Shown piece by piece: positions 31,856 to 58,844 of a stretch of DNA of 64,000 bases. The notes beneath the pieces were generated by a model. It was not told the DNA's origin, did not search any database, and saw only the letters and a list, made by a program, of their open reading frames with translations. The position numbers were made by a program, and so were the translations under genes. Source of the DNA: Candidatus Omnitrophota bacterium (GTDB lineage Bacteria; Omnitrophota; Gorgyraeia; Duberdicusellales; 4484-171); contig JAQUWY010000002.1 of the NCBI GenBank assembly GCA_028692655.1, positions 34,851 to 98,850 of the forward strand. The letters run 5' to 3'. The first letter of the stretch is position 1, and every line of letters starts with the position of its first letter.

Positions 31856-31898
31856 CGTGCGGATTAATGCCGGCTGAAGCAGGGAGATGGAGAGCGAG

Positions 31899-35788: not shown

Positions 35789-36508
35789 ATGAAGTTGAAG
35801 CTGTTTCTTTTAGTCTTGCTATTAATGCCGCTTTGTTCCTTCTCAGCGGTAAAAGACGAGTATTTAGTTGGTTTAGGCAATACCTATCTGGACAAAGGCA
35901 TGCTGGATAAGGCTAGGCTTGAATTCACTCAGGCTCTCTCGGCCAATCCTTCTAACCAGGAGGCAAAAGCCGCTCTGGAAGGTATGCCGGAGATACCTAA
36001 AGAGGAAGGCCTTATAAGTAGTTTTAGTTTTTTGGGCGGTTTTATAGAGGAAGAAAATAAATATGAGGATCATTACAAGGGAATACCGCTGTTTTTTTCT
36101 TTTGGTTTTGACGCTAAACCTTTCTTTTCTAAAATAGGCCTGCATACTAAAGGCAGGCTTGAATTTGTTCTGGAGCCTTTTGTTAATGCTATGTTTGAAC
36201 CCAAAGCAAACGTGGAGCTTGGTTCGAATTTTCTTATAGAATACGCTTTTCCCTTAACTAAAAAGTTTCAGCCTTATATAAAAGGCGGGCTGGGAGTTGC
36301 CTGGATGAGCCAGCATATAGAGGAGCAGGCTACTCAGTATAATTTTCTTCCCCAAGGAGCTTTGGGGTTTCACTACCTGATAAAGGATAATGTTGCTCTG
36401 AGTTGTGAATTTCGCCACCGGCACCTTTCCAATGCCGGGATAAAGGATCCCAATAAAGGCGTTGATGCCAGCTTATATCTGGCAGGATTTACCTTTTATT
36501 TCAAATGA
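35789..36508 (+). CDS. pagL: outer-membrane lipid A 3-O-deacylase (PagL-like) with TPR-like N-terminal extension
   Basis: Signal peptide MKLKLFLLVLLLMPLCSFSA. The C-terminal half aligns by eye to P. aeruginosa PagL: GGLGVAWMS resembles EAGIGVAAFS, and HRHLSNAGIKDPNKGVD resembles HYSNAGLKQPNDGIE (catalytic His/Ser). The N-terminal ~70 aa is TPR-like. Confidence 0.55.
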   Translation: MKLKLFLLVLLLMPLCSFSAVKDEYLVGLGNTYLDKGMLDKARLEFTQALSANPSNQEAKAALEGMPEIPKEEGLISSFSFLGGFIEEENKYEDHYKGIPLFFSFGFDAKPFFSKIGLHTKGRLEFVLEPFVNAMFEPKANVELGSNFLIEYAFPLTKKFQPYIKGGLGVAWMSQHIEEQATQYNFLPQGALGFHYLIKDNVALSCEFRHRHLSNAGIKDPNKGVDASLYLAGFTFYFK

Positions 36509-42938: not shown

Positions 42939-44273
42939 ATGCTGATGTTTTCCATTATGTATGAAGTATTTTGTGAGATTGCCCGGGCCCTGGCATGGGT
43001 TGTTTACGATAGTGTTTTCTTGCTGGTGTTGTTTGCATACCTGCCGTTCTATTTCCACCGCAATAAGATAACTTTTTCGGCGCTTAAGGAAAAACTAGGA
43101 TTCTTTGATTGTCCAGGGCAGGCTGAATCTGTCTGGATACAGGTGGTAAGCGTGGGGGAAGTTAATATGATATCTAACTTTATTCAGCGCCTGCGCAAAG
43201 ACTACGATTATCGTATAGTAATAACCACTACAACTTTAACCGGAAATAAAGTCGCTAAAGAGAAATATTCCCACTATGCCCAGGTGATGTTTTTTCCTTT
43301 TGATGTTTCCTGGATATTGAAAAAGATTGTCGCAAAAATAAATCCGGCAATGTTTGTAGCCGTTGAAACTGAAATTTGGCCGAATCTTTTCCGTTATCTT
43401 TACAAGCAAGAGGTGCCAATAGTGATTATTAACGGAAGAATATCAGACCAAGCTTTTGATAGATACCGTTATATAAAGCCGTTAACTAAAAAAATACTTA
43501 ATTTATGCGATGGGATTGGAGTCCAAAACTCGCTTTATGAGGAACGCTTCCTGTACCTAGGCGCTCCGGCGCAGAAGCTTGTAATAAGCGGGAACATGAA
43601 ATTTGAAGGTGTATCTTTTGATGAAGAAAAGATGAAACAGTTCCGGAACACATATGAGCCGATGATAAAAAAATCCGGCAATTTACTTTTTGTTTGCGGC
43701 TGTACTCATGAGCCGGAAGAAGAGTTGATAGTTGATGTGTATAAACAAATATACAAGATCTATCCTGAACTTAAGCTTATCATTGCGCCTCGTCATCCTG
43801 AACGGGTTCCTGAAGTGGAGAGGATCCTTTCTTCCAGAGGGTTCTTACCGCGCCGCTTAATGAGCCAGGAAAGGTTGTTTGATAAAGAAAATGATATAGG
43901 TGTTATTGATGGGGTGGGCCAGCTTGTATATTTTTACAATATGGCTGATTTTTGTTTTGTAGGCGGTAGTTTTTCTGATGACGGAGGCCATAATATATTA
44001 GAGCCCATATTCTTTTTGAAACCCGTTATTTTTGGGCCGCATATGGAAAATTTTCCTGATATAGAAAAATTGGTGCTTAAGGAAGAAGCCGGATTGAAAG
44101 TGTATAGTAGCCGGGAACTGAAGGATAAGATTATAAGCCTAATCAAGGATGAAACTTTACGGAAGAATCTCAGTGACAAATGCCTTAAGGTATTTAACGA
44201 AGAAAGAAAGGATTTGGAGAATAATTTTAAAATAATAAATAACTTATTGAGCCGGGCCCGGAAAAATGCTTAA
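42939..44273 (+). CDS. waaA: 3-deoxy-D-manno-octulosonic acid (Kdo) transferase
   Basis: 444 aa with an N-terminal TM helix. Strong block-by-block similarity to E. coli WaaA (VSVGEV; ETEIWPNL; APRHPER; VGGSF..GGHN). Confidence 0.9.
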   Translation: MLMFSIMYEVFCEIARALAWVVYDSVFLLVLFAYLPFYFHRNKITFSALKEKLGFFDCPGQAESVWIQVVSVGEVNMISNFIQRLRKDYDYRIVITTTTLTGNKVAKEKYSHYAQVMFFPFDVSWILKKIVAKINPAMFVAVETEIWPNLFRYLYKQEVPIVIINGRISDQAFDRYRYIKPLTKKILNLCDGIGVQNSLYEERFLYLGAPAQKLVISGNMKFEGVSFDEEKMKQFRNTYEPMIKKSGNLLFVCGCTHEPEEELIVDVYKQIYKIYPELKLIIAPRHPERVPEVERILSSRGFLPRRLMSQERLFDKENDIGVIDGVGQLVYFYNMADFCFVGGSFSDDGGHNILEPIFFLKPVIFGPHMENFPDIEKLVLKEEAGLKVYSSRELKDKIISLIKDETLRKNLSDKCLKVFNEERKDLENNFKIINNLLSRARKNA

Positions 44274-45288
44274 ATTAAAAAGATGGTATCTGGAATTTAT
44301 TGAAAAGAGAGACAGAAATATTTACGAAAAGGCTCTGTATGGCTTTTTTTATCTTATTTCGTTATTTTACGGCAGGATTATTTATCTTAGGAACTTCTTT
44401 TACGATAAAGGCTTCATTTCTGTGTATCAGTCTAAAGCAAAAGTTATAAGCGTTGGCAACATCTCTTGGGCGGGTTCCGGAAAGACAACCCTCGCGGCTT
44501 TTCTCTATAAGAAGCTTTCTTCAACTCATTCTACCGCAATTTTACGCAGGGGCTACGGCAGGGATGAAGGAGAACTTCTCAAAGAGGTAACGGATTCGGT
44601 GTTTTCCTCTCCCAGCAGGAGTGATTTAGCAAAAAAACTCGGAAATAAATTTGACCTTTTTATTCTAGACGATGCCTTTCAACATCGCAAGCTGGCTAGA
44701 GATATTAACATAGTGGTTATGGCTGCCAGAGAATTTAAAGCCGGATTCAGGCTTATTCCGGCGTCTTTCTTTCGGGAACCAATAAATAGTTTAAGCCGGG
44801 CCGATATTGTTGTTTTGAATTATAGCGATGAAGCCGGCAATATATCTTCAATTAAAAAAAGTCTCCAAAGCCGGTTTCCCGGATTAAAAGTTTATCTTTC
44901 GAATTATCAGGTTTCAGGCTATAACGGCTTATCGGGAGAATCTTATCCGGCTGCTTTTCTAATGGGAAAAAGAGTAGCGGCATTAACCGCCATAGGCTAT
45001 CCGAAAGGCTTTTTTAATAAATTAAAAAGCGCCGGGGTTTCTGTTAAGCGTGAGATTACTTACCCAGATCACTATGAGCTGGGAGAGAGCGAATTTCGCA
45101 AATTGGAAAGTGAACTTCTGTCTTCGGGAATAAAAACACTGGTTATTACCGGCAAGGACAAATATCATATTCCCGAATCAGTTTCAGGCCTTGATATCTT
45201 CATAATGAACGTAGATTTAGTAATAGAGGCTGAAGAAGATTTTCTAAAGCAGGTAGATTCGGTTATTTCGGGAGGAAAGGATGTATAA
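44266..45288 (+). CDS. lpxK: tetraacyldisaccharide 4'-kinase
   Basis: 340 aa. ISVGNISWAGSGKTTL P-loop in the LpxK context. Overlaps waaA by 8 nt. Confidence 0.88.
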   Translation: MLKLKRWYLEFIEKRDRNIYEKALYGFFYLISLFYGRIIYLRNFFYDKGFISVYQSKAKVISVGNISWAGSGKTTLAAFLYKKLSSTHSTAILRRGYGRDEGELLKEVTDSVFSSPSRSDLAKKLGNKFDLFILDDAFQHRKLARDINIVVMAAREFKAGFRLIPASFFREPINSLSRADIVVLNYSDEAGNISSIKKSLQSRFPGLKVYLSNYQVSGYNGLSGESYPAAFLMGKRVAALTAIGYPKGFFNKLKSAGVSVKREITYPDHYELGESEFRKLESELLSSGIKTLVITGKDKYHIPESVSGLDIFIMNVDLVIEAEEDFLKQVDSVISGGKDV

Positions 45289-47086
45289 ATTAGCCAATAC
45301 CATCAGATATTTTCTCTTAAAGCTCCCTTTAAGTTTTTCCTTATTTTTGGGATATCTGCTGGGATTTTTGTTCTACTTTAATTTTCACCGCCGAAGGATA
45401 GCTTTTAAAAATGTTAAAATGGCCTTTCCTGCTAAGACCAGCCGTGAAGCTCTTCGTATCGTTCGCAGGAGTTCCTATAATTTGGGGTTAAGTATAGTGG
45501 AGTGCTTGATCGCGCCCCGGATATACCAGAATATTACCATAAAGGGTGAAGAAAACATTGAGGATAACGGTGGTATTTTCGTTGGTATACATTCTGGCAA
45601 CTGGGAGGTAGTTATCTCTGCTTTTTCACAGAGGCATAAAATAGCTGTTTTTGCAAACTCTCAAAAGAATAAAAGCCTGGATGGTTTTCTAAACGAATTA
45701 CGCAAGCAGGGAGAAATCAGGGTCTGTCTTACCATAAAAGAACTAATAAACTGCCTTAAAGATAACTACCTTGTAGGGGTGGTGATAGATCACGGAGCGG
45801 AAAAAGATGCTCTTATGGTTGAGTTTTTTTCTCATTTGGTGCCTACACCCAAAGGAGCAGTTTATCTAGCTAAAAAGTTTAATAAACCCATATATACAAA
45901 CTTTTCTTTTAGGACTAAAAGATTTTCCCATTGCAGCTTGATTGGCAAACCAATATATCCAGAGGGTAAAGAAGAGAGCCAAATCCTGCGCCAGCTCAAT
46001 TCCATATACGAAAAATACTTAACAGATAATCCCTGGGAGTATTTTTGGTATTATAAACGTTTTAAACACAAACGGGACCGCGATGTTATTGTTTTAAACG
46101 ATAAAAGGCCGGGGCATTTCAAACAGGCGCTGTCTCTGGTTAAGTTCCTCTCAACGAAAGGTTACGAGCTGCGGGTTAAAATAATTGAAGTCAATTACCG
46201 TAATCGTTTCAGCCGTATCCTTGCCGATATTTTGGCATTTTTGAGCCCGCAAAGCCTTTTGTTTTCCTCCCGGATGCTTTCCTGGCTAATGGATAAAAAA
46301 ACTTTTGATCAGCTTGACAGGATGCATGCAGATATAGTTGTAAGTGCGGGAAGTTTCATGGCTCCGGTTAATCGCCTTGTCTCTTCTTATGCTGGAGCTA
46401 AATCTGCTGTAGTGTTAAGGCCTAATGTCTGCCTGCGTAAGTTTGACTTGGTAGTTATTCCCGAGCATGACCGGGTGTATGCTCCTAACGTGGTCAATGT
46501 AAAAGGTGCCCTTTTTTATCCCGAAGGCACAGAAGAGAAAGGGGCCAAATGCAGGGACTACTTTAATTTAAGCAGCCACAAAAAAACGGCTTTGTTTATT
46601 GGGGGGCCTTTGGGAGATAAAAAAGAATTCTTAAGAAAGCTCAAAGATTTTATTCCTTCCTTTAAAAAATTTCTCCAGAGAGAAAACTGCAAGCTTCTTC
46701 TCAGCACTTCCCGCAGGACTCCCGTTGAAGCCGAAGACTATCTTGAGAAAGAATTTTCCGGATTTTTCGATACGGAAGCTCTGGTTATTGCTAATAGGAA
46801 TAACCAGGATTTTGTTTTTGAAGGGTTTATCTCTTTGTCGCAATATGTTTTTGTTAGCAGCGAGAGCATTTCCATGATTTCCGAAGCGGCATCGTTGAAT
46901 AAGGCCTGCGTATGCGTTTCGTTTGTCAGTGAGGACGATAAACGCAAGGTTTTTCTTAAGTCGCTGGAGGAAGAAATAACTTTCCTTGATGAACCCTATG
47001 ATATAAAATCTATAGAGCCCAAGGATTCTTCTATATTTGAGCACAATTTGAAAGTTTTAGAGAAACCTTTAAATAGGCTTTTTTAA
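45281..47086 (+). CDS. fusion protein: LpxL/HtrB-family lipid A late acyltransferase (N-term, to ~46070) plus ELM1/DUF1022-like GT-B-like domain (C-term)
   Basis: 601 aa. The N-terminal half has the HX4E acyltransferase motif (HSGNWE) and the LpxL-family layout. The C-terminal half begins VLNDKRPGHFKQALSL, which resembles the D-G-k-p-G-h-e-n-Q consensus of the mitochondrial-fission-ELM1/DUF1022 family. Confidence 0.7.
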   Translation: MYKLANTIRYFLLKLPLSFSLFLGYLLGFLFYFNFHRRRIAFKNVKMAFPAKTSREALRIVRRSSYNLGLSIVECLIAPRIYQNITIKGEENIEDNGGIFVGIHSGNWEVVISAFSQRHKIAVFANSQKNKSLDGFLNELRKQGEIRVCLTIKELINCLKDNYLVGVVIDHGAEKDALMVEFFSHLVPTPKGAVYLAKKFNKPIYTNFSFRTKRFSHCSLIGKPIYPEGKEESQILRQLNSIYEKYLTDNPWEYFWYYKRFKHKRDRDVIVLNDKRPGHFKQALSLVKFLSTKGYELRVKIIEVNYRNRFSRILADILAFLSPQSLLFSSRMLSWLMDKKTFDQLDRMHADIVVSAGSFMAPVNRLVSSYAGAKSAVVLRPNVCLRKFDLVVIPEHDRVYAPNVVNVKGALFYPEGTEEKGAKCRDYFNLSSHKKTALFIGGPLGDKKEFLRKLKDFIPSFKKFLQRENCKLLLSTSRRTPVEAEDYLEKEFSGFFDTEALVIANRNNQDFVFEGFISLSQYVFVSSESISMISEAASLNKACVCVSFVSEDDKRKVFLKSLEEEITFLDEPYDIKSIEPKDSSIFEHNLKVLEKPLNRLF

Positions 47087-47112: not shown

Positions 47113-49191
47113 TTGAAAGTTATGCAAATACTTCCCCGCATGAATATAGGCGGGATAGAAAGAGGTGTTTTGGACCTGGTCAAGTTTTTTGCCGGCAGCT
47201 CTCATAAAGAGAATTGCGGTGAATCTATTTCTAATATTGTCGTCAGCGGAGGGGGTAACTTAATAGGAGAGCTGGAGAAAGAAGGCATCAAACATTACCA
47301 GTTGCCCGTATATAAAAAATCCCCGAGCCTCTTATTGCTTGTGCCCAAGTTAAAAAAAATTATAGCCGCCGAAGGTATTGATATAGTACATGCCCGTAGC
47401 CGCATGCCGGCGATAGCTGGTTTTTTTGCTTCCCGAAACAGTAAAGCTCAATTTATTACCACTGCTCATGGGGTATATAAAAGTAAAGTGTTCAGTGAAG
47501 TTATGGCCTGGGGCAAGTATGTTATCTGTCCGTCTAAAGTTGTGGCCCGCCACATGAAAAATGCTTTCGGAGTACCGGAGGAAAAAATAGTAATCGTAAA
47601 TCGCTGGGTTGATTTAAGCCGCTTCACTTTCACTGACTATTCCAGGAAGAAAGAAAATAATATTATAGTCAGTATGGGGCGGATTTCTCCCAGTAAAGGC
47701 TATGAACACCTGATACGCGCTTTTAAAAAAATAGTGCGCTTTAATCCTTACCTTAAGCTTCGTATTGTAGGCTCGGCCTCAAAGTCGAAGGGCCGTTATC
47801 TGGAGTATTTAAAAAGCCTGGTTTTCAGGTTTTCCTTGAATTATAACGTGGAATTTTCCGGTTTTCATTACGATGTTGAAAAAATTCTAGATGATGCCAG
47901 AATATTAGTTGCTCCCTCTGTAATTGAGGAGTCATTCGGCAGGGTGGTGATTGAGGCGTTTGCAAGCGGGGTTCCAGTGATAGCTTCTAACATAGGTGGT
48001 TTTAAGGAGATAATTGAGCCTGGCGTGGATGGTTTGCTGGTTGAACCCGGAAATAGCGATGAAATATCAGAAGCCATTCTTAAACTTATCCAAAATCCTG
48101 ATATGGCACAAGCAATGACACTTAAAGCAAGAAAAAAAGTAGAAGCCCGTTACACTATGGAACAGTGCCTTCAAGAAACCGCCAGTGTTTATGACAGGGC
48201 CGTAAAAGATTTACGCATACTGGTTATTAAGATTTCTTCTCTGGGGGACCTTATCCTTTCTTTTCCGTCCTTAAAAGCCCTGCGCCAGAGGTATCCGAAA
48301 GCCAAGATATCTCTTCTTACTTTAAAAAAATATCATTCTTTAATGGAGGAGTGTCCTTATGTTGACGAAATTATTGCACTAACGGATAATTACAAAGCTG
48401 TTCAAGAAATTATGTCCCTCACGCGTCGATTACGGAGAAAGAGCTTTGATTATATTATTGATTTGCAAAACAACCGGGCCTCGCATTTAATTTCTTTTTT
48501 TAGCTTTCCTCTCTGTTCATTCGGTTACTCTCTGCGTTGGGGATTTTTGCTCAGCCGCCGTCTTAAATTTATCCGCAATCAGGACCCCTTAAGCTCTCAG
48601 GAAAAAATACTGGAATTACTTGGGGTTAGGCTCAATGAAAAAAAACTCACTTTTTGGCCGGTTAAAGAAAACGTGTCTTTTAATCTGCCTTCGGGAGATT
48701 TAATCGGCATAGCTGTTTCGGCTTCAGCCAAATGGCATTCAAAGAATTGGCCTCCTGAAAATATAATCAAACTGGGGCAGATAATAGAGCGCCAAATGCC
48801 TTCTTTCAAAATTATTCTTTTGGGTGAAGAATCATCGAAAGATTTGGCCGGTAAGATTGAGTCCTGTTTAGGGCCTTCTGTAGTCAATCTTTGCGGAAAA
48901 ACCACTTTGAGAGAGCTGTCTAGTGTATTGGGTAAACTTAAGCTTTTTATAGCTCCAGATACTGCCACTTTGCATTTGGCTTGTGCTAAGGGAATAAAAA
49001 CCCTTGCTTTATTCGGGCCTACTGATCCCCGGCGGCATACGGTAGAAGATGAGGGGCTTGAAGTATTATACGAAAAGCTCGAATGTTCTTTTTGTTACCG
49101 GGGCCAGTGCCGTTTAGGAAAGGACAGCTTGTGTTTGGAGAAAATATCTCCTCAGAAAGTATTTTCTAAAATCAGAGAAATGATAGCCTGA
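47113..49191 (+). CDS. bifunctional glycosyltransferase: GT4 (N-term, to ~48200) fused to GT9 heptosyltransferase (C-term)
   Basis: 692 aa. TTG start 10 nt after an AGGAGG RBS. The GT4 EX7E motif EESFGRVVIEA is followed by ILVIKISSLGDLILSFPSLKAL (GT9 N-terminal signature) and the GT9 C-terminal LFGPTDP motif. Ends in a 4-Cys motif. Confidence 0.8.
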   Translation: MKVMQILPRMNIGGIERGVLDLVKFFAGSSHKENCGESISNIVVSGGGNLIGELEKEGIKHYQLPVYKKSPSLLLLVPKLKKIIAAEGIDIVHARSRMPAIAGFFASRNSKAQFITTAHGVYKSKVFSEVMAWGKYVICPSKVVARHMKNAFGVPEEKIVIVNRWVDLSRFTFTDYSRKKENNIIVSMGRISPSKGYEHLIRAFKKIVRFNPYLKLRIVGSASKSKGRYLEYLKSLVFRFSLNYNVEFSGFHYDVEKILDDARILVAPSVIEESFGRVVIEAFASGVPVIASNIGGFKEIIEPGVDGLLVEPGNSDEISEAILKLIQNPDMAQAMTLKARKKVEARYTMEQCLQETASVYDRAVKDLRILVIKISSLGDLILSFPSLKALRQRYPKAKISLLTLKKYHSLMEECPYVDEIIALTDNYKAVQEIMSLTRRLRRKSFDYIIDLQNNRASHLISFFSFPLCSFGYSLRWGFLLSRRLKFIRNQDPLSSQEKILELLGVRLNEKKLTFWPVKENVSFNLPSGDLIGIAVSASAKWHSKNWPPENIIKLGQIIERQMPSFKIILLGEESSKDLAGKIESCLGPSVVNLCGKTTLRELSSVLGKLKLFIAPDTATLHLACAKGIKTLALFGPTDPRRHTVEDEGLEVLYEKLECSFCYRGQCRLGKDSLCLEKISPQKVFSKIREMIA

Positions 49192-49267: not shown

Positions 49268-50338
49268 ATGAACATTTTAATTCTAACAACCCACCTTGAT
49301 CCCGGAGGAATTTCCCGTTATGTTATCAATCTGTCCAAGGCTCTCTGCCAGGCTGGCCATAAGGTGTGGGTAGCTTCCGGCGGAGGACAGTGGGAGAAAG
49401 AATTATCTTTTGAAGCGGTTAGTTTTATCCATATACCTATAAAGACGAAGTCGATTTTTAGCCCTAAAATATTTTTTTCCTTCATAAATTTGCGCCGTTT
49501 TTTAAAAGAAAGAAAAATTGATATAATTCATTGTAATACCCGCGTGACGCAGTTGTTGGGATTCTTGTTGTCCAAGCCTGCCGGTGTTCCTTATGTCAGC
49601 GCTTTTCATGGTTTCTATAGGCCGTCGGCAGAAAGAAAACTTTTTCAATTTTCGGGAGCGATGTCAATAGCCGTAAGCAATGCGGTAAGGGAACATATAA
49701 TCAAGGATCTATGGGTTAAACCGGAGAAAGTGCGTGTTGTCTATAACGGGATTGATTTCAAAGATTTCAATACTGCCGAGAGCCAGCGTAAAAGTTGGGG
49801 GTTTAAATCAACGGATTATTTGATAGGCGTTCTGGGCAGGATCTCACGGGAAAAAGGGCATTTCTTAGTTGTTAAAGCCTTGAGCCTTCTGGCGAGAAAA
49901 CACAGCAACATCTATTTGATTATTTCAGGCAGGGGTAAAATGGAAGCAAACCTAAAAGAGCTTATACGAAATAAGTCTTTGGAAGGCAGAGTATTTTTTA
50001 AAGAATCTTCCGCAAATCAGTTCTTAAGCAGTATGGACTCAATTGTCGTTGCGTCCGAAAAAGAAGGCTTTGGATATTCGATTATTGAAGCTTTTAAAAA
50101 GGGAGTGCCGGTTATAGGCTTTAACACGGGAGGAATATCTGAAATTATCCGTAATCGTAGTAACGGCTTATTGTTTTATAGCTACGATGCTCTCTCTTTA
50201 GCCGGAGCAATTGAGGAGATGATGCTTAAAAATAACTTGCGCAGCGTTCTTATTGGTAAGGCCAGGGAAGATGTAGAATTCTTTTCGGCTAAAAGGATGG
50301 CTTTTGATACGGAGAAAGTTTACAGGGAGATAATATAA
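49268..50338 (+). CDS. GT4 family glycosyltransferase
   Basis: 356 aa. EKEGFGYSIIEA (EX7E) and the GT-B fold. Confidence 0.82.
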   Translation: MNILILTTHLDPGGISRYVINLSKALCQAGHKVWVASGGGQWEKELSFEAVSFIHIPIKTKSIFSPKIFFSFINLRRFLKERKIDIIHCNTRVTQLLGFLLSKPAGVPYVSAFHGFYRPSAERKLFQFSGAMSIAVSNAVREHIIKDLWVKPEKVRVVYNGIDFKDFNTAESQRKSWGFKSTDYLIGVLGRISREKGHFLVVKALSLLARKHSNIYLIISGRGKMEANLKELIRNKSLEGRVFFKESSANQFLSSMDSIVVASEKEGFGYSIIEAFKKGVPVIGFNTGGISEIIRNRSNGLLFYSYDALSLAGAIEEMMLKNNLRSVLIGKAREDVEFFSAKRMAFDTEKVYREII

Positions 50339-51105
50339 TGAAAAGAATTTTTCTTTTGTGCGGCGTAATAATTTTAGCCGTTTTTATTTTGTTCGGGGCA
50401 TACTTAAATGCTAATTACGCAACGCCCATACTTGTTTACCACTCTCTTGATGGGAAGAGAGCCGAAAATTATGCCGCGGTGGACATAAAAGTATTCCGGC
50501 GTCAAATGGAGTTTATAAAGAGGAATTCTTATAAAGTTATAAGCCTTGATAGATATTGCCGGTTATTAAGATCGGGGGAAGCTGTGCCAAGAAGAAGCTT
50601 GATTATAACTTTTGATGACGGTTACAAAGACAACCTTGAAGGGATAAAGACTTTAAAGGAATCAGAGTTTCCGGCTACTATTTTTATTATTGTGGATAAA
50701 GTCGGTAAAGAAGGGTATCTTTCTGAGGAAGATATAAAATCTTTTTTGGGCAACTCCCAAATATCTATAGGCTCTCATACTTTAACGCATGCTTATTTGC
50801 CGGGGGCAACGGTTAGTGAGTTAAAAAAAGAAATTGCCTTTTCAAAAGAAATTCTTGAGAAAAATTTTCCTCAAACGGTTTCTGCTATTGCTTATCCTGT
50901 GGGTGGTTTTGACGAAAGGGTTCTTAGGGAGGCCGAAGCTGCAGGATATCTTTGTGCCTGTTCTACTAACCGTGGTTTTTCGAAAAGAATAAATCCTTTT
51001 GCTCTCAGGAGAATAAAGATAACCAACTCTGACGGTGAGTTTAGCCTTTGGGCAAAGTTAAGCGGATTTTATAATGTTTTCCGTAAGCTTAAGAATCCCT
51101 ATTAA
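50338..51105 (+). CDS. polysaccharide deacetylase (NodB-homology, CE4)
   Basis: 255 aa with an N-terminal TM segment. TFDDGY (Asp-Asp) and HTLTH metal/catalytic motifs. Confidence 0.8.
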   Translation: MKRIFLLCGVIILAVFILFGAYLNANYATPILVYHSLDGKRAENYAAVDIKVFRRQMEFIKRNSYKVISLDRYCRLLRSGEAVPRRSLIITFDDGYKDNLEGIKTLKESEFPATIFIIVDKVGKEGYLSEEDIKSFLGNSQISIGSHTLTHAYLPGATVSELKKEIAFSKEILEKNFPQTVSAIAYPVGGFDERVLREAEAAGYLCACSTNRGFSKRINPFALRRIKITNSDGEFSLWAKLSGFYNVFRKLKNPY

Positions 51106-51114
51106 CCAGGAAGT

Positions 51115-52173
51115 ATGGACAAAAAAGAATTAAACAGGTTCCCGCAAAATAAAAGCAAAGATAAACGCATCCTTGTCGTTGGTGTTAATTGGCTGGGGGA
51201 CAGCATAATGACTACCCCGGCATTTAAAGCCTTAAAGCATGTTTATCCTGAATCTTACATAGCAGTAATGACTGTTTCAAGGGTAAAGGAAGTTTTTGAA
51301 GATAATCCCTGTGTGGATGAAGTTATTATTTTTGATGAAAAGACATCACATAAAAGTATTAAAGAAAAAATAAAGTTCATTAAATTCTTAAAAGAGAAAA
51401 AGTTTCAAAAGGCATTCTTGATACACCGCTCTTTTACCAGGGCTCTTATCTGCCGGTTGGCGGCAATTCCTTCCCGGGCAGGCTATCAGAGGCTAAAGAA
51501 TTATTTTATTTTAACTGACAAGGTAGGCTTACCTAAAGAAGGGCTGCATCGTCAGGATTATTATTTAAATCTTTTCAAAAAGTCAGGGATAGCCGTTGAA
51601 AATTCTTTGCCGGAGTTTTTTATACCACCGGGAGTCCTTGATAGAGTTTCCCGGGCTTTAGAATTCTTAAAGAAAGACCATTCCTGCCTGGTGGGAGTTA
51701 ATCCCTCTGCTAATTGGGAACTTAAACGCTGGCCGCCTGAATATTTTTCTGTTCTTTGTGACCGTTTGGTTAAAGGCATGGGGGCGGGTGTTGTTTTTGT
51801 GGGTGGTGAATCTGATGAAAAGATTACAAGGGAGGTAATCGGAAGAATGCGTGAACCGGCCTACAGCCTTTGCGGCAAGACAACCCTTAAGGAGCTAGCC
51901 GCGGTAATAAAAAATATCAGTCTTTTCATTTCAAATGATTCCGGGCCGGCTCATTTGTCTGCTGCTTTAGGGGTGAGTACCCTGGCCTTGTTTGGGCCAA
52001 CCTCACCAAAGATAACTTCACCACGTGGGCGAAGAGTCAGGGTGATTAAGAATGATTGTGGTTGTAAGGTGCCCTGCTATGATTTAAATTGTAAGAATAA
52101 TATTTGTATGCAGAAGATAACTGTTGAGGAAGTGTATTTGGAAGCGAAGAATATGCTGGATAACCTAGTTTAA
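51115..52173 (+). CDS. GT9 ADP-heptose:LPS heptosyltransferase
   Basis: 352 aa. ILVVGVNWLGDSIMTTPAFKALK N-terminal signature, LFGPTSP, and a C-terminal CGC...C...C motif. Confidence 0.82.
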   Translation: MDKKELNRFPQNKSKDKRILVVGVNWLGDSIMTTPAFKALKHVYPESYIAVMTVSRVKEVFEDNPCVDEVIIFDEKTSHKSIKEKIKFIKFLKEKKFQKAFLIHRSFTRALICRLAAIPSRAGYQRLKNYFILTDKVGLPKEGLHRQDYYLNLFKKSGIAVENSLPEFFIPPGVLDRVSRALEFLKKDHSCLVGVNPSANWELKRWPPEYFSVLCDRLVKGMGAGVVFVGGESDEKITREVIGRMREPAYSLCGKTTLKELAAVIKNISLFISNDSGPAHLSAALGVSTLALFGPTSPKITSPRGRRVRVIKNDCGCKVPCYDLNCKNNICMQKITVEEVYLEAKNMLDNLV

Positions 52174-52180
52174 TCCGCTT

Positions 52181-53071
52181 ATGGCTAAAAATATATTAAT
52201 AAATTTTCCCACTAACTTAGGAGATACCATTATGGGCCTTCCGGTATTGGACCGTTTGAAGTCCAATTATCCGCAGGCAAAAATAACTGTTATTGCTTCC
52301 TCAGCTACAAAAGAGTTTCTCTTGGCAAACAATTTTATCGATGAGGTAGTTGTTTTTAATAAGCATTGGACTAATATTCAGAAAATACGTTTTGTTCTGG
52401 GGCTGAGAGGTAAATATGATTTGATGGCAGATTTAAAAAATTCTTTTCTGCCCGTTCTTCTGGGGATAAGCGATCATACACCTTTTTTCAGGAAATTTCC
52501 CCAGGATATGCACTTGAAAGAACGCTATTTGTCTCTGGTCGAGCCAATTGCTCCCGAGGCCCGGAATCTTCACAGCCAATTTATTATAACCGGCGAGAAT
52601 GAGTCTTGCTGGAGGAGAGAAAAAATAGCTAAAGCTGTATTTATTGCCGGTTCTTCTCGTAACCGCTTTAAGAGGTACCCTGCAGATTTATTATGCAAGG
52701 CCATTGAAGAGATAAAAAGCTTTGCCCCGGTAGCGATTTTGGGCCAGCGAGATGAGAGAGAATTTTATCATAGTCTTTTATCTATGCCGGGGGTTATTGA
52801 TTTAGTAGGCAAAACCAGCATGAGCGAAGTGTATTTTTTACTTAAAGAATACGGGCGTTTGCTTATCAGTGTTGACTCTGGGTTGTTGCATTTAGGAAGT
52901 TATCTTAACCTGCCTATTTTGGCACTATTTGGGCCGACTGACCCCTGCCGATACGGCCCCTGGTCTAAACAAAGCGTTGTTTTATGTCCACAAAGCCATA
53001 ATCTTACCGATATATCACCGCAGGAGATAGTTGCTTCAGCCAGGCGTTTATTATCCAATGAAGAAACCTAA
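52181..53071 (+). CDS. GT9 heptosyltransferase family protein (short)
   Basis: 296 aa. ILINFPTNLGDTIMGLPVL and LFGPTDP. Lacks the C-terminal Cys motif. Confidence 0.75.
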   Translation: MAKNILINFPTNLGDTIMGLPVLDRLKSNYPQAKITVIASSATKEFLLANNFIDEVVVFNKHWTNIQKIRFVLGLRGKYDLMADLKNSFLPVLLGISDHTPFFRKFPQDMHLKERYLSLVEPIAPEARNLHSQFIITGENESCWRREKIAKAVFIAGSSRNRFKRYPADLLCKAIEEIKSFAPVAILGQRDEREFYHSLLSMPGVIDLVGKTSMSEVYFLLKEYGRLLISVDSGLLHLGSYLNLPILALFGPTDPCRYGPWSKQSVVLCPQSHNLTDISPQEIVASARRLLSNEET

Positions 53072-54092
53072 ACGCATACTTATTTTACGAACTGATAGGC
53101 TGGGGGACGTTATTCTTTCAACTCCGGCTATCAGGAATTTACGTTTGGCGTATCCTGATGCTCACATTGCTTTTCTTTGCCGGCCATACACCCGTCAGGC
53201 AGTGGAAGGTAATCCTTATTTGGATGAAGTTATAGAGTATGATAAACACGGCAGGCATAAAAGCTTTTCTTCCACTGTAAGATTTTCTTTCTGGCTGAGG
53301 ACAAAAAAGTTTGACTGGGCCGTTGTTTTACACCCCACCAATCGTGCTAATATGATAGTTTTTTTAGCCGGGATTCCCCTGCGTGTTGGGTTCAACCGTA
53401 AAACGGGATATTTACTGAATAAAAGAATTCCTCATAAAAAACAACAAGGAAAAAAACATGAAGTTGAATATACTTTAGATATATTGCGCTATATAGGTGT
53501 GGAGGTAAAGGACAAAGTGCTTTATTTTCCGGTAATTGATAAAGCTCGCAAGGTTGTTGACAAACTTTTTAATTCCAAAGGTGTGGATTCCGGCAAAAAA
53601 CTTCTGGTTATCCATCCTTCAGCGTCTTGTCCGTCTAAGCGCTGGAGCCAGAATAATTTTTCCCGCCTTATAAGGGTTCTCAAGGCTGCTAATCACGATT
53701 TAATAATTGCCGTGATTACCTCCGAAGCTGAGAAAAAATTTGGCAAAAAATTAGTAGAGGAGAATGATGTTGTTGATCTAAGAGGTAAACTCAATCTTGC
53801 AGAATTAGGGGCATTGCTGGAGAGGGCAAGCCTTTTGATATCAAACGATACCGGGCCGGTCCATATAGCTGCCGCTCTAAAAATTCCGGTGATTTCCATA
53901 TTTGGCCGTAATGACCCGGGCCTTTCGCCGTTACGCTGGCGGCCTTTAGGAAAAAACTCTTATTATTTGCATAAAGATGTTGGTTGCAAGAAATGCCTTG
54001 CGCATAATTGCGATAAAAACTTTTTATGCCTGCAATCAATTGCAGTTGAAGAAGTTTTTGAACTGGCCATAAAGTTTCTTAAGTCAAACTAG
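53058..54092 (+). CDS. GT9 ADP-heptose:LPS heptosyltransferase
   Basis: Start refined to ATG 53058 (MKKPKRILILRTDRLGDV). The listed 53031 start gives a 41-nt overlap. IFGRNDP and a C-terminal CKKC...C...C motif. Confidence 0.8.
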   Translation: MKKPKRILILRTDRLGDVILSTPAIRNLRLAYPDAHIAFLCRPYTRQAVEGNPYLDEVIEYDKHGRHKSFSSTVRFSFWLRTKKFDWAVVLHPTNRANMIVFLAGIPLRVGFNRKTGYLLNKRIPHKKQQGKKHEVEYTLDILRYIGVEVKDKVLYFPVIDKARKVVDKLFNSKGVDSGKKLLVIHPSASCPSKRWSQNNFSRLIRVLKAANHDLIIAVITSEAEKKFGKKLVEENDVVDLRGKLNLAELGALLERASLLISNDTGPVHIAAALKIPVISIFGRNDPGLSPLRWRPLGKNSYYLHKDVGCKKCLAHNCDKNFLCLQSIAVEEVFELAIKFLKSN

Positions 54093-54162: not shown

Positions 54163-54822
54163 GTGAAAAATAGAACGAATATTATTCTTTGCTCAAAAAA
54201 GGCAAAATGTTCGAGTGAAATTATAAAACGGCTCAGCCTTTACTTGCGTAATCTTAAGCGGCTTGAGAAGGAAGGGGTTGAGACAATTTCTTCAGATAAG
54301 ATTACTCAGTTTTTGAATGCCAGTTCAGTGCAGTTTAGAAAAGATCTTTCTTATTTCGGCGGTTTTGGAAAGCCTGGTGTGGGGTATAAAGTTAAGTCAT
54401 TGCTTAAAGAGCTTGAAAATATACTGGGAGTAAATCAGGAGTGGGATATTGCCTTGGTTGGTGCCGGCAGGCTAGGGGGAGCGCTGTCACGCTTTGAAGG
54501 GTTTTCCCGGTTTAATCTGCGGATTGTTTGTGTGTTTGATAACGATAAGAAAGTTATAGGGAAAAAAAGAGGCCAGCTTCTGATCCAGGACGTGAAAGAC
54601 TTAGTAAAAACGGTTGAAAGAAAAAAAATCAGAATTGCTATAATCGCGACCCCTATGGAAGCCGCACAGAGCGTATGTCACGAGCTGACTAAAGCCGGGG
54701 TTAAGGGGATATTAAACTTTTCTCCCTTAGTTCTCAAAGTTCCCAATGGCGTTTGCGTTTCCAATGTTGATATGGCCTGTGAGCTTGAAAGTCTTATTTA
54801 TTTCGCCAAAAGGAAAAGATAA
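54163..54822 (+). CDS. rex: redox-sensing transcriptional repressor Rex
   Basis: 219 aa (GTG start). N-terminal winged helix (IIKRLSLYLRNLKRL, similar to B. subtilis IPQATAKRLPLYYRFLKNL). FRKDLSYFGGFGKPGVGY, then the Rossmann NADH site LVGAGRLGG. Confidence 0.85.
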   Translation: MKNRTNIILCSKKAKCSSEIIKRLSLYLRNLKRLEKEGVETISSDKITQFLNASSVQFRKDLSYFGGFGKPGVGYKVKSLLKELENILGVNQEWDIALVGAGRLGGALSRFEGFSRFNLRIVCVFDNDKKVIGKKRGQLLIQDVKDLVKTVERKKIRIAIIATPMEAAQSVCHELTKAGVKGILNFSPLVLKVPNGVCVSNVDMACELESLIYFAKRKR

Positions 54823-54838
54823 TTAACGGGAGGCAGAC

Positions 54839-55105
54839 ATGATTAAAAAGACTTTGCTCTTGGTTCTTGTAAATGTGCGCAAAGAGTCAGCAGCTAAGGT
54901 GCAAAAGATACTTACCGATTGGGGTTGTATTATAAAAACCCGCTTGGGAATACATGATGGGGTGCTTGATGATTGCACTAATTCAGGACTTATAATCCTT
55001 GAGCTTGTCGGAAGCGATAACCAGGCTCAGGAAATTAACCATAAGCTTAATCTCTTGGCTGGGGTTAAATCTGAGATCGTGGAGCTGCAGTTGCCTAAAG
55101 ATTAA
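54839..55105 (+). CDS. small ACT-like protein, putative [FeFe]-hydrogenase system regulator (TM1266-like)
   Basis: 88 aa with a GGGAGG RBS. Secondary-structure-like pattern of an ACT/NikR-C-terminal fold. Lies between rex and the hydrogenase structural genes. Family assignment is from memory of the TM1266-type family and is not verified. Confidence 0.35.
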   Translation: MIKKTLLLVLVNVRKESAAKVQKILTDWGCIIKTRLGIHDGVLDDCTNSGLIILELVGSDNQAQEINHKLNLLAGVKSEIVELQLPKD

Positions 55106-55134
55106 CCTAAAATAGCAATAAAAGGTACTAAAAG

Positions 55135-55674
55135 ATGAAATATAGCTTAACAAAACACAGGCCGGAGAAGATCAAAGACCGCTTAAGAATAGATAATATT
55201 ATTTCCCGCCATAAAGATACTCCCGGAGAATTATTGAATATCTTGGAAGAAACCCAGATTTTAAGTAAATATAACTATCTTTCTCCCGCTCAGTTGAAGT
55301 ACATAGCCGAAAAAACTTCTTACCCGCTTTCTGTGGTTTACAGCGTAACCACTTTTTATTCTTTTTTTAACCTTAAGCCTCAGGGGGAACATTGTATAAT
55401 TGTCTGCCGGGGTACTGCATGCCATACCAAAGGGTCGCGCCGGATACTGGATTATCTAGAAAGTGTGCTTGATTTTGGCGATGAAAAAATCAATGAAGGA
55501 GAGAAAGTTTTTTTAACTACAAAAGACAAAGTTATTACTATTAAGACTGTTGCTTGTTTTGGCCAGTGCGCTCTTGCGCCTGTGGTTGAAGTAGACGGAA
55601 TCATTCATAGCCGGATGACTGTAGAAAAGATGAAAAAAGTATTGTCAGCTTTAAAAAAGAAGGGCCTTAAATGA
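55135..55674 (+). CDS. NuoE-like [2Fe-2S] thioredoxin-fold subunit of multimeric [FeFe]-hydrogenase (HydC/HndA-like)
   Basis: 179 aa. CRGTACH...C...CFGQCALAP four-Cys pattern of the NuoE/HoxE family. Confidence 0.85.
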   Translation: MKYSLTKHRPEKIKDRLRIDNIISRHKDTPGELLNILEETQILSKYNYLSPAQLKYIAEKTSYPLSVVYSVTTFYSFFNLKPQGEHCIIVCRGTACHTKGSRRILDYLESVLDFGDEKINEGEKVFLTTKDKVITIKTVACFGQCALAPVVEVDGIIHSRMTVEKMKKVLSALKKKGLK

Positions 55675-58600
55675 AAGTGGTTGATATTAAAACCCTTGAA
55701 AAGGTAAAAGCAAAAGGGTTAAAAAAACTCTTTCCTTCTGTGGCTAGGATTACGGTAGGTTTAGGCACCTGCGGTGCCGGCAATAATGCGCAAGGGATTT
55801 ATGATTTTCTTGAAAGATATTTCTCAAAAAAGAAAAAAAGGATTTTTCTCACCAAAACAGGCTGCTTTGGATTTTGTGCTCAAGAACCTTTAGTTACTTT
55901 TAGGGTTCCGGGAAAGCCTCTGCTTATGTTCAGTAAGCTTAATGAGAAGTCCGCGAAACGCATAGCTGATAGCGTTTTACAGGGTGCACCTGATTCCGGT
56001 AATATTTTGTGTAAGATAGAAGAATGGGACCACTTAACTTCAAAATTAAATTATGGCAAAGGGTATCCTGCGATTCCTTCTTGGAAAGAGGTTCCTTTTT
56101 TTAAGAGGCAGAAAAAAATAGTTTTGAGAGACTGCGGGTTGATTAACCCCGATGATATAGAAGAATATTTCGGAGTAGGAGGCTACAGTGCACTTTTTAA
56201 AGTTTTGCATCAGTTTAGCCCTCAGGAGTGTTTGAATGAAGTAAAGGAATCTGGATTGCGTGGCCGGGGAGGAGCAGGCTTTCCGGTTTGGAAAAAATGG
56301 GAGATTCTTAAAAATAAAGTATCCGATAAAAAATATATTGTTTGCAATGCCGATGAAGGCGATCCCGGGGCATATATGAATAGGAACGAGTTGGAAGGTG
56401 ACCCTCATATGATTATAGAGGGTATGGCTATAGCCGGCTTTATTACCGGTTCTCATGAAGGAATCATATATTGCCGTGCAGAATATCCTCTGGCTGTAGA
56501 AAGGCTTCATAATGCCATTGCTCAGGCTAAAAGATACGGTGTTTTAGGCGCAAAGGTACTCGGTTCTGATTTTGATTTTAACCTTCATATTGTTGAGGGG
56601 GCAGGTGCTTTTGTCTGCGGAGAGGAGACCGCCCTCATTGCTTCTATTGAAGGAAAATCCGGACGCCCGAATGTCAGGCCGCCTTTTCCGGCAGAAAAAG
56701 GTATTTGGGGCTATCCTACCAATATAAATAATGTCGAGACCTGGGCTAATATCCCGGTGATTATAGCAAAAGGGGGAAAAGATTTTTCTCTTACGGGAGC
56801 AAAAGGAAACTCCGGCACTAAAGTGTTTTCTTTGGTGGGCAAGGTTAAGAATACCGGTCTGGTTGAGCTTCCTCTGGGCACGAGCCTTCAGACTCTTGTC
56901 TTTGATATCGGCGGAGGCACCGGCACGAATAAAAAAATAAAAGCAGTTCAGACCGGCGGGCCTTCGGGCGGATGCATACCGATGCGCCTCTTTAATACTC
57001 CCATTGATTATGAGTCTCTAACCAATTTAGGCACGATTATGGGTTCGGGAGGCGTAGTGGTTATGGACGAAGATAATTGTATGGTTGATGTTGCCAGATA
57101 TTTTACTGAATTCACTACTGCGGAATCTTGTGGTAAGTGTACTCCCTGCCGAGAGGGTTTAAGCCAGATTTTAAAGATGCTGCAGGATATTGCTGCCGGC
57201 AGGGCTTCGATTGATATTCTGGATAAGGCAAGCGAATTAGGCAGTATAATAAAAGATTCGGCTCTTTGCGGATTAGGCCAGACCGGGCCCAATCCACTTT
57301 TAACCACCCTGAAATATTTTCGGCAGGAATACAAACAGCATATTAAAGATAATTATTGTGATGCGGGAGTCTGTCAGGAAATGTTTTTAGCCCCTTGTGA
57401 AAATAGCTGTCCCTTACATATGAATATACCGGCTTATCTTTCGATGTTTGAAGAAGGAAGGGTAAAAGATGCTTTCGAGTCTATAATCAGGGATAATCCT
57501 TTGCCGGCTTCTATAGGAAGGATTTGCCATTTTCATTGTAAGCTTCGTTGTCGCAGAGAAGATATAGATTCTCCCGTTGCTCAAGGAGAAGTCCACCGCT
57601 ATATAGCGGATGTTCTTCGCGGAACAAAAGAAGAAAAAGAAGTGCTTGATAAGATTTGTAAAGAAAAACTTCCTTTAACCGGGAAAAAAATAGTCATTAT
57701 CGGTGCCGGCCCGGCAGGGCTTACCGCGGCATATTATCTCATACGCTTAGGGCATAAAGTAACTGTTTATGACCGGGCTCATGAGGCCGGCGGGATACTG
57801 CGATGGGGAATTCCGGCATACAGGCTTCCCCGTGATATTTTGAAGCACGAGATAGGTTTTTTGGGTAAATTAGGGGTGAAATTTATTTTTAATAAAAAGA
57901 TTTCTCCTCGCGATATAAAAAGCTTGCAAGAAAAATCTCAGGCGTTAATTATTGCCGCTGGCGCTTACAAAGAAATTTCTCTGAATATACCCGGAGAAGG
58001 CTCAAGCGGCGTATTTTCCGGAAGTAGTTTTCTGGAGAGCATTGCCGGCGGCAGGAAACCGGCAATTGGGAAAAAGGTGGTTATTGTAGGCGGAGGAAAT
58101 GTAGCCATAGATGCTGCCAGGAGTGCTATGCGCCTGGGGGCAAGAGTTACTATAGTTTATCGCCGGCAGGAACCAGATATGCCGGCTAATCACGCTGAAA
58201 TTCTTGAGGCTTATAAAGAAGGCGTAAAGATGTTGTTTATGAGAGCCCCCAAGAGAATAATAGGCTCAGATCCGGACAATAAAGTCAAAGCTATAGAATT
58301 GTCAGTAATGAAACCAGGCCCGTGTGATTCCTCCGGAAGGAAAAAACCTCTGGATACGGGTGAAACTGAAACTTTAGCTTGCGATACAATACTCTTTGCT
58401 ATCGGAGAACGTGTTGATGCTGACTTTGCTGCCGCCTGCGGGCTTGAACTTACGGCTTACAAAACAATAACTGCTGATGAATTCACTTTAGAAACTAATA
58501 TAAAAAAGGTTTATGCGGGAGGAGATATAGTTACCGGCCCGGGGACTGCGGTTGAAGCCATGGCTCAGGGAAAGCGTATGGCAAGAGCTATCGATAAGAA

Positions 58601-58826: not shown

Positions 58827-58844
58827 ATGTATAGAGGAAATTGT

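Follow-up and report, generated by a model that had tools for sequence, protein, structure and literature searches.

An LpxL/LpxM-type acyltransferase fused to an ELM1/KdoT-family glycosyltransferase domain in Omnitrophota: a candidate bifunctional enzyme of lipid A-core assembly

What a domain of the ELM1 family does at the end of a lipid A acyltransferase is the question raised by one gene (45281-47086) of a 64,000-nucleotide stretch of DNA, hereafter the window, from a Candidatus Omnitrophota bacterium (assembly GCA_028692655.1, contig JAQUWY010000002.1, positions 34,851 to 98,850). The gene stands in a cluster for lipopolysaccharide (LPS) core biosynthesis and its product joins an LpxL/LpxM-type late acyltransferase to a domain of the family that contains KdoT, a transferase of 3-deoxy-D-manno-oct-2-ulosonic acid (Kdo) from Acinetobacter. 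The reading favoured here, at a probability of roughly 0.6, is that the fusion is a single-pass membrane-anchored bifunctional lipid A-core enzyme acting on Kdo2-lipid IVA, with Kdo as the donated sugar; the activities, the donor and the order of the steps are inferred. That its ELM1 domain is an active inner-core glycosyltransferase on Kdo2-lipid A species is considered very probable, this activity being a prediction as well; Kdo as the donor, taken alone, is only slightly favoured.

The fusion open reading frame (ORF) contains no internal stop codon or alternative start between the two domains, and its start overlaps the stop codon of lpxK (45286-45288) by 8 nt. An earlier note on this DNA had proposed a Pfam scan for PF03279 and PF06258, and both domains were detected far above their gathering scores, Lip_A_acyltrans (PF03279) at residues 10-262 (E 2.4e-32, 112.7 bits, cut-off 22.3; profile positions 24-294 of 295) and Mito_fiss_Elm1 (PF06258) at residues 277-565 (E 4.6e-36, 124.9 bits, cut-off 27). 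The AlphaFold2 (AF2) model of the full-length fusion reached a predicted local distance difference test score (pLDDT) of 92.5 and a predicted template modelling score (pTM) of 0.89. The NCBI protein that is 100% identical to the fusion, from a Candidatus Omnitrophica metagenome-assembled genome (MAG), is named [quoted passage not shown], and some Joint Genome Institute (JGI) entries for such proteins carry the double name [quoted passage not shown]. Hundreds of such proteins are present in databases under automatically assigned names.

Neighbouring genes in this operon overlap or abut, a setting in which an assembly error, a frameshift or a faulty gene call can unite two genes into an artefactual fusion, and the earlier note had itself named a frameshift between two genes as the finding that would undo its interpretation. 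The chance of such an artefact is regarded as practically negligible. The identical protein was also found on independent Logan assemblies, and a scan of GTDB species genomes yielded 13 loci with relatives at 53-86% identity, in which the fusion is a single unbroken ORF on every contig that spans it and the gene order, as far as the contigs extend, is dprA-topA-xerC-waaA-lpxK-[LpxL-ELM1]-[GT4-GT9]-GT4-deacetylase-GT9-GT9-GT9 (GT, glycosyltransferase). When 1.84 billion representatives of 50%-identity clusters were searched exhaustively with a profile of the ELM1 domain, the family comprised 6,670 of them at E <= 0.001. Both domains were present in 268 of the 423 proteins collected; 196 of the 268 were complete and came from many samples, and the linker was 5-7 residues long in 179 of these. 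Divergent fused classes occur in the same gene neighbourhood, one of about 30% identity (P0144) and one of about 650 aa (P0290, P0332), the latter probably from Omnitrophota as judged by its identical aroK-dprA-topA-xerC-waaA-lpxK synteny. The fusion is thus real, conserved and ancient, and as far as seen it is characteristic of Omnitrophota. The Omnitrophota-type fusion locus is also carried by MAGs labelled “uncultured Planctomycetia” and by one labelled “Methanosarcinales archaeon” (together records L003, L005, L007, L008, L012 and L013-L015), which points to taxonomic mislabelling or bin contamination.

The N-terminal half had been described in the earlier note as an LpxL/HtrB-family acyltransferase with an HX4E motif, and PF03279 together with the sequence H104-SGNW-E109 agrees with that description. 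In a sequence search of the PDB this half matched only LpxM of A. baumannii (5kn7, E 4e-7), and in a Foldseek search with the full-length model the best match was again LpxM (5knk/5kn7, E 1.1e-14, template modelling score (TM) relative to the target 0.63-0.65), followed by mycobacterial PatA. Among the homologous LpxL domains H104 was conserved in 224/224 sequences, E109 in 219/224 and D170 in 249/249. Residues ~10-33 provide the sole strongly hydrophobic 19-residue Kyte-Doolittle windows of the fusion protein, with a mean of up to 1.79, and correspond to a putative membrane anchor. All 16 NCBIfam matches are to lipid A late (lauroyl/myristoyl) acyltransferases and all score under the equivalog cut-offs, the best being NF006270 with 96.2 bits against a cut-off of 248, so that neither LpxL, LpxM nor LpxP is singled out: these scores place the domain in the LpxL/LpxM group at the family level only, with acyl chain and position not assignable. 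By its sequence, this half belongs to the lipid A secondary acyltransferases of LpxL/LpxM type, and its HX4E dyad is intact. It shares with LpxL/LpxM proteins (PF03279, LPLAT superfamily; A. baumannii LpxM 5kn7/5knk) the N-terminal anchor, the HX4(D/E) dyad, the fold and the placement of the gene with waaA and lpxK, and differs from them in the additional C-terminal glycosyltransferase domain of 330 residues.

The C-terminal half begins with VLNDKRPGHFKQALSL at residue 271 and is an ELM1/PF06258 domain of GT-B type; its description in the earlier note as ELM1/DUF1022-like and GT-B-like was confirmed by Pfam, by the AF2 model and by Foldseek. The model of this domain (pLDDT 95, pTM 0.90) consists of alternating strands and helices in two Rossmann-like lobes. 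Foldseek against the PDB returned 120 matches at E <= 0.001, and the best 50 were all GT-B-fold proteins, among them WaaG of Pseudomonas aeruginosa, UDP-GlcNAc 2-epimerases (TM 0.55) and heptosyltransferase II WaaF (1psw, TM 0.51, 13% identity), with TM <= 0.56. The top E-value belonged to the GT-B-like accessory subunit T1 of the Tetrahymena respiratory complex I supercomplex (8gym_T1/7tgh_T1/8b6f_A0, 12% identity); T1 was rejected as a member of the ELM1 family, as a profile search of PDB sequences gave chance matches only. No member of the family was found in that search, so the ELM1 family appears to be without a solved structure. The GT9 profile PF01075 was absent from the fusion protein in the Pfam scan. 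A better match to LpxB (GT19), which the earlier note had raised as a competing assignment, was not obtained: PF02684 gave no match at E <= 0.01, no NCBIfam LpxB model matched, and LpxB was absent from the best 50 Foldseek matches. The same holds for WaaA (GT30), a user of CMP-Kdo and, with LpxB, one of the Raetz pathway's classical inverting GT-B enzymes, which shares no sequence-family match with the ELM1 domain and is likewise missing from those 50.

Several motifs of the ELM1 domain are close to invariant across 317-374 sequences. In the N-lobe motif around D274, the D, G and Q are found in 317/317 sequences and the H in 311/317; S477 and R479 of the SRRT motif are conserved in 374/374 and R478 in 372/374; S-x-G (S355, G357), G-G (G441, G442) and, in the C-lobe, S-x-S-M-x-S-E (S529, S531, M532, S534, E535) are near-invariant as well. 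By comparison with other GT-B enzymes, the strand-loop-helix from S529 to E535 may be the position at which the donor nucleotide binds. The domain also contains an insertion (residues ~296-345) with helices at H39-51, H60-66 and H69-76 in the numbering of the domain model, which is the second most hydrophobic region of the protein and could serve as a membrane-contact element or as an interface to the LpxL domain.

In plants, the role described for ELM1, which is the source of the name of PF06258, is a non-enzymatic one in mitochondrial fission, the recruitment of a dynamin-related protein. The fusion shares with it the Pfam family and presumably a GT-B-like fold, and differs in that a recruitment role finds no support here and that the context of the fusion is wholly that of lipid A/core biosynthesis.

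The bacterial members of the family have a different history. GtrOC1, encoded by the first gene in every A. baumannii outer-core locus, was recognized as a Mito_fiss_Elm1 protein and predicted to be a glycosyltransferase (Kenyon et al., 2014; PMC4172580). Deletion of the ELM1-like gene A1S_2903 produced a Kdo2-lipid A chemotype, and a non-enzymatic, “assistive” role of its product was weighed at that time, prior to biochemistry (VanOtterloo et al., mBio 2024; PMC10936431). The protein was later purified and renamed KdoT (VanOtterloo, Voss and Trent, JBC Dec 2025; PMC12856342). In vitro it transfers KdoIII from CMP-Kdo onto Kdo2-lipid IVA, with a preference of about twofold for the tetra-acylated over the hexa-acylated substrate; it is inactive on lipid IVA, where it cannot replace WaaA (PMC12856342). 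KdoT is an inverting GT-B enzyme whose catalytic base could not be identified; its SRRT motif is invariant and required (R180K was active, R180A and R180Q defective), and the second arginine of the motif was proposed to contact the Kdo carboxylate (PMC12856342). It is a stand-alone protein of ~35 kDa without a transmembrane helix, with peripheral membrane association, and inside cells KdoT and the GT4 enzyme GnaT (LpsB) depend on each other, GnaT being the enzyme that puts GlcNAcA on KdoIII (PMC12856342). A more sequence-divergent homolog from Rickettsia complements the ΔkdoT mutant; the study showed that WaaA is not always the source of all inner-core Kdo, and reported homologs only in Acinetobacter and Rickettsia (PMC12856342). 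A1S_2903 (KdoT) is very probably GtrOC1 of the Kenyon and Hall nomenclature of outer-core (OC) loci, as judged from the order of genes in the locus, from PMC11975115 and from the name “ELM1/GtrOC1 family” given by NCBI to N-terminal fragments of KdoT type from Acinetobacter. The statement of the earlier note that the family is of unknown function is therefore superseded, since genetics and mass spectrometry led to the assignment of one member in 2024, which was purified and assayed in 2025 (PMC10936431, PMC12856342), and the value of the fusion as a functional clue to an uncharacterized family has largely been pre-empted by that publication.

For a direct comparison, the KdoT sequence was available as three short stretches translated from the primers of PMC12856342 and as truncated Acinetobacter entries of 51-150 aa. 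The three primer-derived motifs, SDGKAGHRSQAL, VIPEHD and TSRRTP, are closely matched in the fusion protein. KdoT 1-19, MHIVYVSDGKAGHRSQALG, corresponds to RDVIVLNDKRPGHFKQALS, the consensus of the clade being ILSDGKxGHLKQSxAL; KdoT 104-114, AVIPEHDGIPA, corresponds to VVIPEHDRVYA; and KdoT 174-184, ILTTSRRTPAE, corresponds to LLSTSRRTPVE, with TSRRTPxE identical. Residues D8/H13, H109/D110 and R179/R180 of KdoT are thereby paired with D274/H279, H396/D397 and R478/R479 of the fusion. When the KdoT-type fragment P0382 (149 aa) was aligned with the ELM1-domain profile, hhalign gave 99.1% (E 1.7e-18, 26% identity over 147 columns), the alignment running from the first motif through the GG motif, that is, over the N-lobe; a local BLASTP match to a KdoT-type fragment showed 44% identity over 43 aa. 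Taken together, the ELM1 domain and KdoT have in common PF06258, the NCBI family name, the GT-B fold, the motifs SDGKxGHxxQ, (V/I)IPEHD and TSRRTP, a gene within an LPS core cluster with a GT4 enzyme that follows or is depended upon, and the expected substrate, Kdo2-lipid IVA, which the enzymes of the genes directly upstream of the fusion would make. The differences are that KdoT stands alone, whereas a linker of ~6 residues connects the ELM1 domain with an LpxL-type acyltransferase that has a membrane anchor, and that KdoT lacks the helical insertion of 35-50 residues in the acceptor lobe of the Omnitrophota clade. In addition, GT9-type heptosyltransferases are not among the core glycosyltransferases listed for Acinetobacter (PMC4172580, PMC10936431), in contrast to the GT9-rich cluster of the fusion.

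Gene context is consistent with this assignment. The position of the fusion directly after waaA-lpxK, pointed out in the earlier note, was verified by the PF04413 and PF02606 genes upstream. WaaA matches the NCBIfam models of lipid IVA Kdo transferases (best E 1.7e-92, 310 bits) below the equivalog cut-off of 438 bits, and presumably makes the Kdo2-lipid IVA that is the substrate of the fusion protein. Downstream, a GT4-GT9 gene of ~690-720 aa directly follows the ELM1 domain in every context examined (including L018 and L020-L025), and the core-oligosaccharide cluster of the window extends to 54092. Separate and fused forms, whose comparison the earlier note had suggested, were both found: besides the 268 two-domain proteins there are LpxK-ELM1 fusions (P0243, P0264), a GT9-ELM1 fusion (P0339) and stand-alone ELM1 proteins. 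Those with LpxK or GT9 are uncommon: the best 150 of the 6,670 ELM1 matches contributed 137 further representatives, of which 3 were of these kinds and 111 had an LpxL domain. The LpxK-ELM1 loci read waaA...[LpxK-ELM1]-[GT4-GT9]-GT4-GT9-GT9-PfkB (L021) and [LpxK-ELM1]-[GT4-GT9]-GT4-deacetylase-GT9 (L023), the GT9-ELM1 locus reads GT9-[GT9-ELM1]-[GT4-GT9] (L022), and a stand-alone ELM1 gene in a Deltaproteobacteria MAG stands in the order GT9-ELM1-[GT4-GT9]-GT4-GT9-GT9 (L018).

The LpxK-ELM1 and GT9-ELM1 proteins share with the LpxL-ELM1 fusion the ELM1 clade, the GT4-GT9 neighbour and the logic of merging consecutive genes of one membrane-surface pathway, and differ in the N-terminal partner, which is a kinase or a heptosyltransferase-like protein and not an acyltransferase. 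The constant unit is the ELM1 domain with the following GT4-GT9 gene, and the N-terminal partner is whichever lipid A/core gene lies upstream. The varied fusions can be taken as Rosetta-stone evidence that the ELM1 domain takes part, at the membrane surface, in assembling the lipid A-core; since the same clade is fused to LpxL, LpxK or GT9, or occurs alone, they speak for membership of the pathway and co-localization, and a coupling to acylation in particular does not follow from them. The earlier note had proposed that one lipid A-Kdo intermediate is shared by the ELM1 domain and the acyltransferase. This proposal agrees with the activity of KdoT on Kdo2-lipid IVA (PMC12856342); the link is not confined to LpxL.

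The succession of ELM1 and GT4 parallels the pairing of KdoT and GnaT. At the N-terminus, the GT4-GT9 proteins resemble GnaT, MKVMQLLPELNS, in the window (MKVMQILPRMNI; MKVMQILPRMNIGG) as well as in L023 (MKVLQILPELNIGGVERGT); the GT4-GT9 protein of the window and GnaT are identical at 7 of 11 N-terminal positions by BLASTP and at 8 of 12 by eye. From this resemblance there is a hint that the GT4 domain is a candidate for a GnaT-like next step. At the end of homologous LPS clusters lies a gene for a PfkB-family kinase that may belong to an ADP-heptose pathway (L025 20585-21944; L021 10955-11944), and L025 also holds a CTP_transf_3 cytidylyltransferase (KdsB/NeuA-like), consistent with the use of a CMP-sugar in the cluster. 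Moreover, an Omnitrophota MAG (GCA_016197155.1) encodes a stand-alone ELM1 paralog of 358 aa (P0189, L016 8001-9077) surrounded by an O-antigen-like cluster with Wzy_C, sugar epimerases/dehydratases, methyltransferases and GT2, from which it appears that PF06258 proteins probably also serve outside the inner core.

Based on these observations, the following sequence of reactions can be hypothesized. LpxK would make lipid IVA and WaaA would add Kdo; the LpxL/LpxM-type domain, by means of its H104/E109 dyad, would then attach a secondary acyl chain to Kdo2-lipid IVA, and the C-terminal domain, as an inverting GT-B enzyme, would glycosylate this same molecule in the membrane at its Kdo region. 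For the ELM1 domain, addition of a third Kdo would be the likeliest reaction, CMP-Kdo being the source and R479 in the SRRT motif holding the donor in position, in line with the proposal for KdoT. The GT4 domain of GT4-GT9 might subsequently extend the core, as GnaT does after KdoT, and the GT9 enzymes would act next. The linker of 5-7 residues would keep a soluble or peripheral GT-B domain at the membrane, beside an enzyme with the same substrate. Kdo2-lipid IVA is the substrate of Escherichia coli LpxL, for which Kdo2 is required. This requirement, together with the fact that KdoT prefers Kdo2-lipid IVA, makes the pairing of the two halves a sensible one.

A number of points weigh against this reading. 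Identity to KdoT is about 26% and covers the N-lobe, the C-lobe having been compared by an 11-residue fragment and by motif conservation. The secondary acyl position served by the LpxL half is not fixed by the NCBIfam scores, and the changing fusion partners make the link to acylation non-specific. C-terminal fragments of GnaT score alike on both GT4s of the window (33-40 bits). The cluster contains five GT9 (heptosyltransferase-like) domains, and in enterics O5 of Kdo I, where Acinetobacter has KdoIII, bears a heptose, so the architecture of the core may differ here. We know of no cultured, tractable member of Omnitrophota. The outer-core loci of A. baumannii hold further PF06258 paralogs, GtrOC14, GtrOC19 and GtrOC22, of unknown specificity (PMC4172580), and family membership alone therefore does not fix Kdo as the donor.

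These paralogs are also the starting point of the most serious alternative, according to which the ELM1 domain is an inner-core glycosyltransferase on Kdo2-lipid A that transfers another sugar, such as a hexose, uronic acid or heptose, with UDP-, GDP- or ADP-sugars as donors. The low identity to KdoT, the acceptor-lobe insertion that KdoT lacks, the abundance of GT9 genes and the Foldseek neighbours, which are GT-B enzymes of UDP- and ADP-sugars with WaaA and other CMP-Kdo enzymes absent from the best 50, would all fit such a donor. Nevertheless, TM values are low throughout and do not discriminate the type of donor, the SRRT motif with the arginine proposed to contact the Kdo carboxylate is invariant, the Rickettsia homolog complements ΔkdoT in spite of its divergence (PMC12856342), and both the position directly after waaA-lpxK and the fusion partners LpxK and LpxL are in keeping with the earliest step after WaaA. 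A donor other than Kdo is on this evidence a possible but distinctly less likely reading.

It might also be supposed that one half alone is catalytic, the LpxL half being an anchor or substrate-binding module, or the ELM1 half a non-catalytic scaffold like plant ELM1. A fused anchor could be useful to a peripheral protein such as KdoT, which has no transmembrane helix, E109 is replaced in 5 of 224 sequences, and an “assistive” role had been considered in the mBio study (PMC10936431). Against this stand the conservation of H104 (224/224), D170 (249/249), R479 (374/374) and E535 (373/374) in more than 200 sequences down to <30% identity, the fact that purified KdoT is a true enzyme (PMC12856342) and the partners in LpxK-ELM1 and GT9-ELM1, which are pathway enzymes too; the supposition is improbable. 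Still more so is a role of the ELM1 domain as a non-orthologous replacement of LpxB, acting in the step before LpxK. Such a role would explain the LpxK-ELM1 fusions, LpxB is likewise an inverting GT-B enzyme, and lpxB is absent from the window and from every locus fetched; this absence says little for loci of ~20 kb, since lpxB usually lies with lpxA and lpxD elsewhere in the genome. Acinetobacter and Rickettsia have a canonical lpxB besides their KdoT homologs. KdoT needs Kdo2 and is inactive on lipid IVA (PMC12856342), and with the lack of any GT19 signal in the fusion this led to the rejection of the LpxB substitute, for which the search for lpxB covered the window and the fetched loci and not whole genomes.

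Returning to the bifunctional lipid A-core enzyme, a broader and rather speculative extension may be considered, in which LpxL-ELM1 and the adjacent GT4-GT9 would form an ancient, phylum-wide “inner-core assembly module” of Omnitrophota. Acylation and the first glycosylation after WaaA would be coupled on one polypeptide, the insertion and the fixed linker would form a shared substrate path along which Kdo2-lipid IVA is processed without release, and the sugar might differ from Kdo; if this were true with a sugar other than Kdo, it would represent a core chemistry not yet seen.

Both domains of the protein come from known families, and the fusion of these two known enzyme types is, as far as searched, hitherto unreported: no description of it, of the LpxK and GT9 variants or of the constant GT4-GT9 partner was found in the literature searched. 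The locus extends the picture of KdoT, as the ELM1 family is very large and, in an entire uncultivated phylum, is hard-wired to a late acyltransferase and elsewhere to LpxK or GT9, while the constant GT4 neighbour mirrors the unexplained co-dependence of KdoT and GnaT in cells. The fusions offer independent genomic evidence for an action of the ELM1 family at the stage of Kdo2-lipid IVA and constitute natural constructs for the study of how peripheral core glycosyltransferases are kept at the membrane. As a key to an orphan family they come too late, they overturn nothing known, and they are of use to LPS specialists as an extension of the KdoT work. The features on which this analysis is based are collected in Table 1.

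Table 1. Positions in the window of the fusion gene, its domains and motifs, and the neighbouring genes of the cluster.
Feature	Position	Strand	Basis or remark
waaA (Kdo transferase, GT30)	42939..44273	+	PF04413 E 1.2e-50
lpxK (tetraacyldisaccharide 4'-kinase)	44266..45288	+	PF02606 E 1.7e-54; TIGR00682 148.8 bits > cut-off 91.95
GGAGG ribosome-binding site, 5 nt 5' of fusion ATG	45271..45275	+	read from sequence
LpxL-like + ELM1/KdoT-like fusion ORF	45281..47086	+	single 601-aa ORF, ATG start
LpxL/LpxM-type lipid A secondary acyltransferase domain, residues 10-262	45308..46066	+	PF03279, LpxM structural/sequence matches
Putative N-terminal hydrophobic membrane anchor, residues ~10-33, YFLLKLPLSFSLFLGYLLGFLFYF	45308..45379	+	Kyte-Doolittle; helix in AF2 model
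HX4E catalytic dyad H104-S-G-N-W-E109	45590..45607	+	motif conservation
Inter-domain linker HKRDRDVI, residues ~263-270	46067..46090	+	between LpxL C-terminal W..YKRFK motif and GT-B strand beta-1 (AF2 model)
ELM1/GtrOC1/KdoT-family GT-B glycosyltransferase domain, residues 271-601	46091..47083	+	PF06258, AF2 model, hhalign to KdoT fragment
N-lobe motif D274-K-R-P-G278-H279-F-K-Q282	46100..46126	+	= KdoT S-D8-G-K-A-G-H13-R-S-Q
Helical, partly hydrophobic insertion, ~35-50 residues (~296-345)	46166..46315	+	gap vs KdoT fragment in hhalign
P394-E-H396-D397 motif	46460..46471	+	identical to KdoT V-I-P-E-H109-D110; H 362/365, D 363/365
SRRT motif T476-S477-R478-R479-T480	46706..46720	+	R479 = counterpart of KdoT R180
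C-lobe motif S529-E-S531-I-S-M532-I-S534-E535	46865..46885	+	S529 373/374, M532 374/374, E535 373/374
GT4-GT9 fusion gene	47113..49191	+	PF00534/PF13439 + PF01075; directly 3' of LpxL-ELM1
Core-oligosaccharide cluster downstream of GT4-GT9	49268..54092		
GT4	49268-50338	+	Pfam
Polysaccharide deacetylase	50338-51105	+	Pfam
Three GT9 genes	51115-52173, 52181-53071, 53031-54092	+	Pfam

Elsewhere in the window, a gene on the same strand (35789-36508, +) encodes a PagL-like lipid A 3-O-deacylase (PF09411, E 1.2e-15) with an N-terminal tetratricopeptide repeat (TPR) motif, which suggests remodelling of lipid A in the outer membrane of this Omnitrophota bacterium. A LeuC/LeuD-like dehydratase of the aconitase family has its large subunit encoded at 29456-30757 and its small subunit at 31887-32396 (+), with a gene for a PilT/T2SSE-type secretion ATPase (30806-31855) in between; an isopropylmalate/isocitrate dehydrogenase gene comes after this region (29456-32396, +). 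Beyond the core cluster, positions 54163-63374 (+) encode a Rex-like redox regulator, a NuoE-like protein, a fusion of a NuoF-like protein with a pyridine nucleotide-disulphide oxidoreductase (1051 aa), an [FeFe]-hydrogenase (599 aa) and a second NuoE-like/NuoF-like pair, which together look like an electron-bifurcating hydrogenase cluster.

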